A stretch of DNA of 24,000 bases from Pseudomonas sp. nanlin1 (GCF_045571515.1 NZ_CP124218.1:5307663-5331662); one strand, 5' to 3'. Counted from the stretch's first letter, positions 20,817 to 23,103 are shown. Notes: a model not told the origin generated them from the letters alone. Made by a program: numbers and translations.

Positions 20817-22637
20817 ATGACGACATGTCGACTAATTACAACGCTTGAAACACCTAAGCCGCTACCATATAGCTTGTTCGAAAACCTATTGATCGATTAC
20901 TTGAAAACACCACTAGCTATTCTTATGACAAAAAATCAGCTATCGCATCTGTCAGAAATTTTCGTCAGTTTCGAAACTAAAAAAATTCAAGGATGTAGCG
21001 TTGTCTATAAAAATCAGAGCTTGATGAAAACCAAAAGTTTGGAAGATATACTCGACGAATATAGCTTTATTGTGATTTCTGATAATGATGATGCTGACCG
21101 ACAGGGAAGAGTTAAGAATTTCATGGCCGAACGCTATGGTGGAGATGGAATTTTAAAGAACGGTGGGGGGGGACGCTGTGGTTTCGATGGCGAATGGCAG
21201 CTGAAAGGTTTAGGTCCGAATGAGCTGGTTGATTCGAATGCAGAAAAAACTCATTCCGATGGAAATTTGAGCTTGACAACAGCGTTGTATGAAAGCATTT
21301 GGGCTGAAATCTTGCACTTGGTCTTGCCGTATGGAGCCGTCAGGTCTGTAGCCGTGCTTGATACCGGGAGAAAATTTGAGTTTGGAGGATGTTCTGTAGC
21401 ACGCGGGCTACTAGTCAGGGAACCGGTAGTACGCCTAGCACATTTTATAAGAGCTACCTACTTCAAAGAACGGAATTTAAATAAACTAGGAGAAGACGCT
21501 ACGCGCGTAAAAGCCACCATTCAAAAACTAGCAAATTTTTTACCAAATGATACTATTCTTACCAAAACCAGTACTACAGAAAACTTGAGGAATGGATTCT
21601 TTGGGCTAGCGACCCGGTATGCAAAACAGTTTGCCACAGCTCGTGCAAAACATATCATTCATTATAATGTCAGTGCTTCTAATGTCTCTATAGATGGCCA
21701 ATGGCTAGATCTCAGTGGCACCAGAATTTTCACGAACCTAATAAATGGTGACCGTATCGATATCGATCGATTCAATGCGGAGTACTTACCCGTATTAGAC
21801 AGCTTTCAAAGCCTTTGTTACTATTTAGTTAAATATAATGTTCTTGACAGTCAAGAATCCTCCAAAATTCTTAACCTAACTCTTAGCCAATTCGTAAAGG
21901 TCTACGATATGGAAGTTAGCATTCAACATGTCGCTCAAGCAGGCTTCCCACTCTGGATGCTCAGAAAGTTGACTGATAGCCCAGAATTCGAAGCTTTCTC
22001 AAATCACTTAAAAAAAATATTTGAAAATTATTCATTCGTTGTAAATGAGATCAATCTAGGAAAAATTTGGCACGGCTATGAGCGCCAAGTTACACGCTTA
22101 TACCGTGACCTGCTTTTAAACAAAACTGGAAGTCTGGCGCCCTTAGATTTTTCATGGCTCCGGGCAGATGTTCCTCCCCATGAAGTACAGTCTAGTTACG
22201 ATCGTTTATTTGATCTATCAGCGTATTACGCAAACAAAAAAAATATTTCAAGAAAAAACTTTGCCCGGTCACTAGCGATTAATATGATTCGACTGAACCG
22301 AAGTTCTAATGTATTACATGGGCTAGAGTCACGTATAGTGAAAGCCACTTCAGAAAATCCCGCTAAACGAGTTGAAATATTTGAATCACTGCTAGAAGAA
22401 GTTATATTCAGCGCAGAGTTGAACCTAACCAATGAATCGGAGCAATCTATCCCATTCTGGCTGGATAGTAATACCCGCATCAGCTTTTGTCCTGCTTCTG
22501 GCATGTACGAACTGCAAAACAAGCACAAGTATACTTTATCGGCGCAATCTCTGAAAAAACTCGGAAAAGAAAATATCTCCATAAATTCCGCCCTTCTATT
22601 TTACGGAGATATTTGGAGTATACTGGATGAAAAATAG
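20817..22637 (+). CDS. Large SelO/YdiU-like (kinase-fold) protein, candidate MchC/MceJ-type microcin maturation enzyme
   Basis: 606 aa. RYGGDGILKNGGGGRCGFDGEWQLKGLGPNEL...DGNLSLTTALYESIWAEILHL...AVRSVAVLDTG...VVRLAHFIR parallels SelO (GQLGDGRGILLGE...[48 protein letters not shown]...MRLAQSHMRFGHFE). HYNVSASNVSIDGQWLDLSG parallels the SelO catalytic loop [20 protein letters not shown]. Both comparisons are from memory. The gene overlaps a downstream HlyC-family gene by 11 nt, as in mchC-mchD and mceJ-mceI. Confidence 0.6.
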   Translation: MTTCRLITTLETPKPLPYSLFENLLIDYLKTPLAILMTKNQLSHLSEIFVSFETKKIQGCSVVYKNQSLMKTKSLEDILDEYSFIVISDNDDADRQGRVKNFMAERYGGDGILKNGGGGRCGFDGEWQLKGLGPNELVDSNAEKTHSDGNLSLTTALYESIWAEILHLVLPYGAVRSVAVLDTGRKFEFGGCSVARGLLVREPVVRLAHFIRATYFKERNLNKLGEDATRVKATIQKLANFLPNDTILTKTSTTENLRNGFFGLATRYAKQFATARAKHIIHYNVSASNVSIDGQWLDLSGTRIFTNLINGDRIDIDRFNAEYLPVLDSFQSLCYYLVKYNVLDSQESSKILNLTLSQFVKVYDMEVSIQHVAQAGFPLWMLRKLTDSPEFEAFSNHLKKIFENYSFVVNEINLGKIWHGYERQVTRLYRDLLLNKTGSLAPLDFSWLRADVPPHEVQSSYDRLFDLSAYYANKKNISRKNFARSLAINMIRLNRSSNVLHGLESRIVKATSENPAKRVEIFESLLEEVIFSAELNLTNESEQSIPFWLDSNTRISFCPASGMYELQNKHKYTLSAQSLKKLGKENISINSALLFYGDIWSILDEK

Positions 22638-23103
22638 TTATTCTCTCTCCACCAACTGCGGTAGCAGTGAAGTCAATCGGAAGGCTACACTTTTAGGTTA
22701 TGCAAATATGATTCTATTTGCGTGCAGTAGCTCATCAAAACTCCAGCTACGCACGCTAAACTACTGGATTTCGCCAGCCATTGATCACAATCAAATCGTA
22801 TTTTTATTTGATAGCACTGGCAGCCCTTTTGGATATGTGACTTGGGCATATTTAGCATCTGATGCCGAGAACCGCTTGCTAAACGATACAAATTTTTTAC
22901 TACATCCTTCCGAATGGAATGAAGGAGGCCAGTTCTGGATCATCGACTTTTTTTTTCCTTATGGTGGCGTAAAGGAGGCGGCACGAAAATTACAATCTTT
23001 CTTTCATAGCTTGGGGGTTTATCAGGTTAAATGGGCACGAAGAACATCGGAATATAAAGTGCGCAAAGTTTTCCAATATAATTTTTCACTCGCAGGCTCG
23101 TAG
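22627..23103 (+). CDS. HlyC/CyaC-family acyltransferase homologue (MchD/MceI-like)
   Basis: 158 aa. SPFGYVTWAYLASDAENRLLNDTNFLLHPSEWNEGGQFWIIDFFFPYGG matches the hallmark block of RTX toxin-activating acyltransferases (..WA.LS.e....l.....l...dW..G..lWiiD..AP.G). Confidence 0.75.
   Translation: MKNSYSLSTNCGSSEVNRKATLLGYANMILFACSSSSKLQLRTLNYWISPAIDHNQIVFLFDSTGSPFGYVTWAYLASDAENRLLNDTNFLLHPSEWNEGGQFWIIDFFFPYGGVKEAARKLQSFFHSLGVYQVKWARRTSEYKVRKVFQYNFSLAGS

Follow-up and report, generated by a model that had tools for sequence, protein, structure and literature searches.

An MchC/MchD-type gene pair without siderophore genes in cis in a microcin island of Pseudomonas sp. nanlin1

The genes studied here lie in a window of 24,000 nucleotides (the whole stretch of DNA analyzed) from the genome of Pseudomonas sp. 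nanlin1 (GCF_045571515.1 NZ_CP124218.1:5307663-5331662). They resemble the pairs known as mchC/mchD at the loci of microcins H47 (MccH47) and M, and as mceJ/mceI at that of microcin E492 (MccE492) of Klebsiella pneumoniae. Two open reading frames (ORFs) located on the plus strand, 20817-22637 (606 aa, the maximal ORF) and 22627-23103 (158 aa), share 11 nt (22627-22637), and are divergent from two ORFs on the opposite strand, one of 83 aa (20377-20628) and one encoding a Gly-rich precursor (20060-20380). This two-ORF layout, including the 11-nt overlap and the divergence from the precursor operon, had been described in the first-pass annotation of this DNA, and the ORF list agrees with it. The length of 606 aa given there for the large protein has to be revised. 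The homologs of this protein are approximately 570-574 aa long and their N-terminal consensus is MxxxxLSDLxEVFVPFET, which aligns with codon 37 of the 606-aa ORF, an ATG at nt 20925; in the AlphaFold model described below, residues 1-37 are disordered. Since the N-terminus of the homologs fits codon 37 and the residues preceding it are disordered, the real start of the mchC-like gene is probably the ATG at 20925, which gives a protein of 570 rather than 606 aa, and the first 36 codons (20817-20924) are probably untranslated. In the NCBI annotation, the gene encodes a hypothetical protein of 578 aa with a TTG start at codon 29. A look-up of this product by its exact sequence gave no record; contigs were obtained with the HlyC-like protein. 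The residue numbers used below are those of the 606-aa ORF.

The large protein shows 37% identity over 316 aa (BLASTP, E 3e-54) with the E. coli MchC encoded at the annotated MccH47 locus. The similarity is confined to the N-terminal kinase-like core, no similarity to the enteric MchC being detectable in the C-terminal half, and the window protein is about 55 aa longer than its enteric counterpart. About 100 homologs were found in Pseudomonas, the best of them in Pseudomonas sp. nanlin1 itself (E = 0, 100% identity); further matches include proteins named MchC in Erwinia, Serratia, and Gibbsiella (E ~1e-40), and Vibrio proteins annotated as SelO match more weakly. Judging from these alignments, the large protein is a true MchC homolog, as had been proposed in the first-pass annotation, where it was called MchC/MceJ-like. 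The SelO/YdiU-like character proposed at the same time was also recovered, in this case by hhalign and Foldseek only. With the AlphaFold model built on 34 homologs (predicted local distance difference test, pLDDT, 86.7; predicted TM-score, pTM, 0.89), the nine best Foldseek matches in the PDB are all YdiU/SelO structures (E 1e-12 to 4e-10; TM 0.62-0.65 by target), ordinary kinases appearing only from E 3e-3. The hhalign comparison with E. coli SelO gave a probability of 95.7% (E 9.8e-9) at an identity of about 15%. The MchC family comprises 1,256 clusters at 50% identity (E <= 1e-3). That MchC is a distant SelO subfamily was published in 2012, as was the occurrence of MchC/MchD pairs without any known microcin in Vibrio, Xanthomonas, and Cellvibrio (PMC3281104).

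Residues K130, R201, R206, N289, and D298 of the window protein were mapped by hhalign onto K107, R170, R177, N247, and D256 of E. coli YdiU, respectively, and S288 onto D246. In YdiU, K107, R170, and R177 bind the beta and gamma phosphates, N247 and D256 bind the metal (two metals are present), and D246 is the proposed general base, the mutation of which abolishes AMPylation (bioRxiv 10.1101/692707). K130, R201, R206, S288, N289, and D298 were all found to be invariant in an alignment of 34 diverse homologs. The MchC-like proteins retain every nucleotide and metal ligand of SelO, and the general base is replaced by the invariant Ser. A Ser at the position of D246 would fit a nucleophile that is already deprotonated, such as a carboxylate. 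In comparison with SelO/YdiU (PF02696; PDB 6eac, 6k20, 6lna), the window protein shows the same overall fold and the same ATP-phosphate and metal ligands, but differs in having no Pfam match, an identity of about 15%, a Ser in the place of D246, and an HlyC-like partner. The presumed nucleophile differs as well, since it would be a peptide carboxylate instead of the side chain of a Ser, Thr, Tyr, or His.

The ORF next to the pair most likely starts at the ATG at 20374, not at the maximal-ORF position 20380, and encodes a class II microcin-type precursor consisting of a 15-aa double-glycine leader (MRELTDEEIFMVSGA) followed by an 89-aa Gly/Ala-rich core ending in ...RLGGSGGAGGSLAA. The leader is identical to that of MccH47 at 7 of the 15 residues, and a leader hidden Markov model (HMM) detected precursors beside MchC/MchD in 36 places. 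The core contains no Lys, no Cys, and a single Arg. The putative immunity protein encoded directly upstream has no significant Pfam or NCBIfam match. A reference-genome scan gave 67 MchC loci, each taken with 10 kb on either side of the MchC gene; the window's clade shares full-length MchC similarity and consists of 16 Pseudomonas loci plus the window (17 in all). In class IIb microcins, the C-terminal tail is expected to be approximately 10 residues long, to be rich in Gly and Ser, and to end in Ser (PMC12219008). The last 10 residues of the window precursor, SGGAGGSLAA, include two Ser and end in Ala and so depart from this description, and its leader and C39-ABC/HlyD export agree with those of the class, in which the double-glycine leader has 15-18 aa. 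In the precursors of the clade, the number of Ser among the last 10 residues ranges from 0 to 5 (median 1), as against 4-8 in the enteric and enteric-like lineages, and the terminal residue may be Ala, Ser, Gly, Lys, or Gln. The core peptides of the clade belong to several unrelated families, the precursors resembling one another only in the leader and in a C-terminal tail of small residues, and this suggests that the pair recognizes the C-terminus. A related island (L005) carries two unrelated precursors (3053-3328 and 12302-12580) and only one MchC/MchD pair, suggesting that one tailoring pair can serve several cores.

The small protein belongs to the Pfam family HlyC (PF02794, E 9.8e-18; 64.7 bits, the gathering score being 25), shows 43% identity over 123 aa (E 3e-32) with the MchD of the annotated MccH47 locus of E. 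coli, and matches the structure of ApxC (4whn) at E 8e-8. On this basis it is an MchD-type member of the HlyC family, in line with the HlyC-family assignment originally made for the 158-aa protein. The similarities on which the first proposal depended, to MchC/MceJ or SelO for the large protein and to the HlyC family for the small one, were all looked for and are present. In 63 of the 67 related loci, an HlyC-like gene is the direct neighbour of the MchC-like one, and with this synteny and the homologs of the large protein, both genes of the window are taken to be real. Toxin-activating acyltransferases (TAATs) such as HlyC, ApxC, and CyaC use a His/Asp dyad; in the model of direct attack, the Asp takes a proton from the acceptor and the His donates one to the departing thiolate (PMC8510554). 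When 64 MchD-like proteins were aligned with ApxC, the catalytic Asp was present in 64 of the 65 sequences. The column of ApxC His24 is occupied by Tyr in 42 sequences, by Arg in 9, by Ser in 6, and by His in no more than 6; the residue of the window protein is Ser. The genuine enteric MchD encoded beside IroB/IroD has Tyr, so that the replacement of His by Tyr or Ser is common to the window protein and to MchD/MceI, and the loss of the His is a trait of the whole MchD branch. The fact that the His has been lost and the Asp kept would fit a donor other than a thioester, such as a peptidyl-adenylate.

Could the small protein nevertheless be a classical TAAT, fatty-acylating an internal Lys from acyl-ACP with the large protein as an accessory? 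The Pfam HlyC match, the name 'toxin-activating lysine-acyltransferase' given to the E. coli MchD homolog by the Prokaryotic Genome Annotation Pipeline (PGAP), and the SCP2 lipid-binding domain encoded in the island would be in keeping with this idea, and PF02794 membership, the similarity to ApxC, and the conserved catalytic Asp are indeed shared with HlyC/ApxC/CyaC. The small protein is nevertheless far closer to MchD than to ApxC, it has no catalytic His, and there is no RTX toxin; classical Lys acylation is excluded because the window core has no Lys. Lys acylation of this peptide is effectively refuted, and we attribute a negligible probability to this explanation as a whole. The donor in the present case would more likely be a peptidyl-adenylate than the acyl-ACP of the classical enzymes.

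In the enteric systems, MceIJ and MchCD link the siderophore to the carboxylate of the C-terminal Ser (PMC7472721; PMC7680869). No glycosyltransferase or esterase was found in Pfam scans of every large ORF of the island, and tblastn searches of the entire window with authentic proteins of the IroB and IroD types, taken from an enteric locus, gave no match at E <= 0.01. The HlyC-like gene is followed by 900 nt up to the end of the window; the contig L069, which is identical to positions 21738-24000, runs 2.9 kb past this end, and the extension contains no glycosyltransferase or esterase either. Neither the enterobactin glycosyltransferase (IroB/MceC/MchA) nor the esterase (IroD/MceD/MchS1) of class IIb systems was therefore seen in cis, and the earlier observation that these genes are missing from the island was confirmed. 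No IroB, IroD, Ent-like, or nonribosomal peptide synthetase (NRPS) gene occurs in cis in any of the 17 loci of the clade. Only 9 of the 67 loci, all of them from Enterobacterales, have IroB at a distance of up to 10 kb from MchC, and none of the 19 Pseudomonas loci contains an IroB or IroD homolog. A scan for Fur boxes gave at best a site agreeing with the 19-bp consensus at 14 of 19 positions, inside a coding sequence, and shuffled sequence routinely gives 13-14; no iron-regulation signal can be claimed from it.

A second Pseudomonas MchC lineage has a different gene content. In three islands (L017, positions 1555-9994; L023, from P. gessardii DSM 17152, 1478-9988; L037, 4076-10010), an entC-E-B-A-F-like catecholate siderophore set lies directly upstream of MchC-MchD in the same orientation, and encodes an isochorismate synthase, a dihydroxybenzoate (DHB)-AMP ligase, an isochorismatase-aryl carrier protein (ArCP), a dehydrogenase of the short-chain dehydrogenase/reductase (SDR) family, and an NRPS with the condensation-adenylation-thiolation-thioesterase (C-A-T-TE) architecture of EntF. 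These islands have no IroB, their precursors have Ser-rich tails, and a TonB receptor is encoded near the L037 locus. They share the genus and the MchC-MchD-LuxR-precursor module with the window's clade, which differs from them in having neither ent-like genes nor Ser-rich tails and in carrying SbmA-like and JmjC-SCP2 genes instead. An EntF-like NRPS was also found directly upstream of MchC in Azospirillum (L019) and Serratia (L032, L048, and L055). The statement in the first-pass annotation that pseudomonads are not enterobactin producers consequently needs qualifying: fluorescent pseudomonads are not known to make enterobactin or salmochelin, but this lineage has an entCEBAF-like set beside MchC. 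The core set of the window's clade comprises MchC, MchD, a LuxR helix-turn-helix (HTH) regulator, HlyD, C39-ABC, TolC, and an SbmA/BacA-like transporter (15 of the 17 loci), the other recurrent ORFs being shadow ORFs or core flanking genes (GacS-like, CysM, RlmD, and RelA). The SbmA-like gene sits in the export operon and occurs essentially nowhere else among the 67 loci, its distribution being complementary to that of the cis siderophore genes of the other lineages. Since siderophore genes, either IroB/IroD or Ent-like, are common in cis in other MchC/MchD lineages and occur in none of the 17 clade loci, and the SbmA-like gene only in the latter, a different acceptor or a different supply of the acceptor is suggested. 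This complementary distribution is the strongest argument for such a difference, although it is not proof.

From the homology, the fold, the residue conservation, the synteny, and the lack of siderophore genes in cis, we infer an adenylation chemistry, the way in which the two proteins would share the work, and the kind of acceptor. It is fairly probable, in our opinion, that this MchC/MchD (MceJ/MceI)-type pair adenylates the C-terminal carboxylate of the precursor and then transfers the peptide to an acceptor other than glucosyl-enterobactin. The SelO-fold MchC-like protein would bind ATP in the flipped manner of SelO and, before export, would pass AMP to the carboxylate at the C-terminus of the leader-bearing precursor, giving a peptidyl-adenylate. 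MceIJ was reportedly found to be ATP-dependent by Nolan et al. in 2007/2008. The bound HlyC-fold partner might then activate a hydroxyl or amine of the acceptor by means of its conserved Asp, and the attack of this group on the adenylate would give a C-terminal ester or amide. The product would finally be secreted by the machinery consisting of HlyD, TolC, and a peptidase-containing ABC transporter (PCAT), after removal of the 15-residue leader following Gly-Ala. In the window's clade, the acceptor would be some other molecule, host-supplied or imported, and most likely not glucosylated enterobactin: the lack of siderophore genes in cis, the Ser-poor tails, the diverged C-terminal half of MchC, and the lack of a Fur box all point in this direction. 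The attachment of a different moiety, as initially suggested for this pair, is plausible, and the clade-wide comparison strengthens the suggestion.

Several points weigh against this reading, some of which concern the chemistry. The HMMER search against PF02696 recommended at the outset was negative, the large protein having no Pfam or NCBIfam match at E <= 1, and sequence searches of the PDB (phmmer, and hmmsearch with a 34-sequence profile) did not reach SelO. The modification of the peptide by the pair is itself a prediction, and the precise function of MceI/MceJ was called unknown in a 2020 review (PMC7472721). The tail of the window precursor ends in Ala, not in the Ser of the verified class IIb microcins, and the recognition rules may differ. 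In addition, the loss of the general base could mean that the large protein has a non-catalytic, regulatory role, and the loss of the TAAT His could make the small protein a mere scaffold; an accessory or regulatory role of MchC has been proposed by Dudkiewicz et al. (PMC3281104). With the Ser-rich tail motif being absent as well, the pair might be inactive cargo, or regulatory and non-catalytic, in which case the microcin would be secreted unmodified and would functionally be of class IIa. We give this explanation very little credence: both ORFs are intact and full-length, none of the residues that bind the nucleotide or the metals varies among the 34 homologs, and the pair has been kept in all 17 loci of the clade despite the rearrangement of the islands and the turnover of the precursors.

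Other points concern the acceptor, which could still be the glycosylated catecholate (salmochelin-like) siderophore of the enteric systems, made by genes located elsewhere in the genome. The islands of E. coli Nissle and CFT073 are truncated, having no mcmL/mcmK, and IroB is supplied in trans (PMC6776366); the E. coli reference locus used here (L071) is of the same truncated type. Because Nissle and CFT073 use IroB in trans, its absence from an island does not prove that the moiety is different, and acceptor-forming genes could lie beyond the 10 kb examined on either side of each MchC gene. The ent-like genes in some Pseudomonas MchC islands also mean that catecholate conjugation exists in the genus. 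These same catechol genes, however, travel with MchC in that lineage and are missing from all 17 clade loci, and the absence of IroB/IroD homologs from the 19 Pseudomonas loci, the loss of the Ser-rich tail motif in the clade, the lack of a Fur-box signal, and what is generally known of siderophore production in fluorescent pseudomonads argue in the same sense. We accordingly regard an enteric-type acceptor as distinctly unlikely, and retain the transfer to another acceptor as the preferred reading.

The other genes of the island are listed in Table 1. The PCAT would cleave the double-glycine leader of the precursor. The SbmA-like transporter could be involved in immunity or in the import of the acceptor. 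The JmjC-SCP2 gene, the last of the export operon, shares 37 nt with the SbmA-like gene and occurs in 9 of the 17 clade loci. The closest structures to its product in the PDB are those of JMJD5 (E 2.6e-20), an arginyl hydroxylase, and FIH (E 1e-14), and the protein is a candidate hydroxylase of a peptide residue. In 10 of the 17 precursors of the clade, and in none of the 9 from other lineages, there is an Arg among the last 15 residues, and it is often the only one in the core. The tail Arg was found in 7 of the 9 cupin-positive and 3 of the 6 cupin-negative loci, a difference which is not significant and provides only a lead.

Table 1. Features of the microcin island in the window and the evidence on which their assignment is based
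Feature	Position	Strand	Evidence
SCP2 (N-terminal) + JmjC/Cupin_8 fusion, JMJD5/FIH type	10308..11570	-	Cupin_8 1.8e-30, SCP2 7.2e-7
SbmA/BacA-like inner-membrane transporter, transmembrane domain only	11534..12646	-	ABC_membrane_2 9.5e-35, SbmA_BacA 6.8e-28
TolC-family outer-membrane channel inside the island	12685..14106	-	Pfam OEP 5.7e-40, NCBIfam type_I_sec_TolC
ABC exporter with C39 peptidase domain (PCAT)	14110..16236	-	Peptidase_C39 2.7e-34, ABC_membrane, ABC_tran
HlyD-family membrane-fusion protein	16247..17563	-	Pfam HlyD_3, NCBIfam type_I_hlyD; kept in 17/17 clade loci
Small LuxR-type HTH regulator, 69 aa	17754..17963	+	Pfam GerE E 3.6e-19; homolog in 15/16 clade loci
Class II microcin-type precursor, 104 aa	20060..20374	-	Leader HMM 30.5 bits
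Putative immunity protein, 83 aa, hydrophobic	20377..20628	-	Directly upstream of the precursor; position and sequence
Divergent intergenic region between immunity/precursor genes and mchC-like/mchD-like genes	20629..20924	.	Sequence reading
MchC/MceJ-like protein, SelO/YdiU fold	20925..22637	+	BLASTP, Foldseek, hhalign, AlphaFold model
MchD/MceI-like protein, HlyC (TAAT) family, 158 aa	22627..23103	+	PF02794, E. coli MchD, ApxC 4whn

The presence of a possible hydroxylase raises the question as to whether any external acceptor is required: AMP or UMP might simply be left on the peptide, or the activated C-terminus might form an intramolecular ester or amide, possibly with a hydroxyl introduced by the JmjC protein. 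None of the islands of the clade carries an acceptor-biosynthesis gene, their flanks consisting of core housekeeping genes; SelO/YdiU enzymes are known to form stable AMP or UMP adducts (bioRxiv 10.1101/692707), and both the co-transcription of the JMJD5/FIH-like hydroxylase in 9 of the 17 loci and the distribution of the tail Arg would suit an internal linkage. The general-base Asp needed for the AMPylation of hydroxyls is replaced by Ser, however, and a C-terminal acyl-adenylate is chemically labile; transfer is intermolecular in the characterized homologs, the cores are too diverse to provide a conserved internal nucleophile, and the cupin enzyme is absent from about half of the clade. A modification without an external acceptor consequently seems unlikely to us, and intermolecular transfer to an acceptor other than glucosyl-enterobactin remains the reading we prefer.

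The L069 contig covers the DNA after the HlyC-like gene and past the end of the window (window 23840-24000, continuing in L069 2103-4999). A full-length SznF homolog starts at window position 23840, after a spacer of 736 nt, and extends beyond the window. This protein has heme-oxygenase-like diiron (HDO) and cupin domains (PDB 6m9r, E 6e-100), and its gene is followed by those of a Rieske protein and a major facilitator superfamily (MFS) transporter. These three genes were rejected as a general part of the island: since their GC content is higher (0.51-0.61) and homologs are missing from all 67 related loci, they are to be regarded as a neighbouring module. A link with the pair through Arg-derived metal-binding chemistry might exist in nanlin1 only.

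The low-GC island extends from approximately 10,300 to 23,750, with a GC content of about 0.39-0.47 as compared with 0.59-0.64 in the flanks. The left edge is marked by a drop in the GC content from about 0.62 to 0.43 directly after position 10187. The left flank is an ordinary high-GC chromosomal region, in which a LysR-family regulator is encoded at 7257-8186 and a PhoD-like phosphatase at 8250-10187. At the boundaries of the island, no meaningful tRNA, Rfam, or repeat match was obtained, and neither tRNA genes nor direct repeats flank it. Between the LuxR gene and the precursor, there is a 2.1-kb stretch (17964-20059) of intermediate GC content (about 0.50), in which no ORF with a family match and no tRNA or Rfam match was detected; neither this stretch nor the 3' spacer shows any similarity to any of the related loci (tblastx and blastn against all loci). 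The promoter and terminator scan gave nothing above the shuffled expectation, and the intergenic region 20629-20924 contains neither a strong sigma-70 match nor a site resembling a Fur box above chance. The genes can be regarded as part of a self-contained class II microcin island that was acquired by horizontal transfer and comprises the precursor, an immunity gene, the LuxR regulator, the C39-ABC/HlyD/TolC exporter, the SbmA-like transporter, and the JmjC-SCP2 enzyme.

Like MchC/MchD and MceJ/MceI, the pair consists of homologous proteins encoded by adjacent, co-oriented genes, which have as neighbours the genes for a precursor with a double-glycine leader like that of MccH47, for immunity, and for an exporter of the C39-ABC/HlyD type. 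The window island differs from the enteric ones in having no IroB/IroD-type genes in cis, a Ser-poor tail ending in Ala, no Fur box, and a Pseudomonas host, and in the presence of its own TolC, the SbmA-like transporter, the JmjC-SCP2 gene, and the LuxR regulator. The family assignment is known biology, some of the Pseudomonas homologs being already named "MchC protein" by automated annotation. No description of a Pseudomonas MchC/MchD microcin system was found in the literature searched, reviews of Pseudomonas bacteriocins in subscription journals being outside the search. With respect to that literature, three elements appear to be new: the Pseudomonas clade as a system (with no siderophore genes, Ser-poor tails, its own TolC, and the SbmA-like and JmjC-SCP2 genes), the Ent-NRPS-linked Pseudomonas lineage, and the explanation, at the level of single residues, of how adenylation and transfer would be divided between the two proteins.

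The 17 loci of the clade may be regarded, tentatively and as one possibility among others, as a distinct and so far undescribed subclass of C-terminally tailored microcins, in which the SelO-fold adenylator and the His-less HlyC-fold transferase would use an acceptor that is neither a catecholate nor glycosylated, or would create a linkage of a new kind within the peptide. The SbmA-like transporter would then import the acceptor or provide immunity, the JMJD5-like JmjC-SCP2 protein would hydroxylate the conserved tail Arg or another residue, and in nanlin1 a metal-binding unit derived from Arg might come from the adjacent enzyme of the SznF type, which forms N-N bonds.

Class IIb microcins are the standard textbook case of natural "Trojan horse" antibiotics and, to our knowledge, the validated ones all come from Enterobacterales and carry glucosyl-enterobactin. 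In the present clade, the ligase pair persists without siderophore genes in cis, whereas sister lineages carry IroB/IroD or entCEBAF-like genes. The two residue patterns described here, the SelO ligands being kept and the base lost in one protein, and the TAAT Asp being kept and the His lost in the other, suggest, in a concrete form open to testing, how the work would be divided between the two proteins throughout the family. If the cargo is indeed different, the known chemistry of conjugates between ribosomal peptides and small molecules would be wider than the enteric examples suggest, and the pair might provide a programmable tool for C-terminal ligation as well as new narrow-spectrum agents against Pseudomonas.

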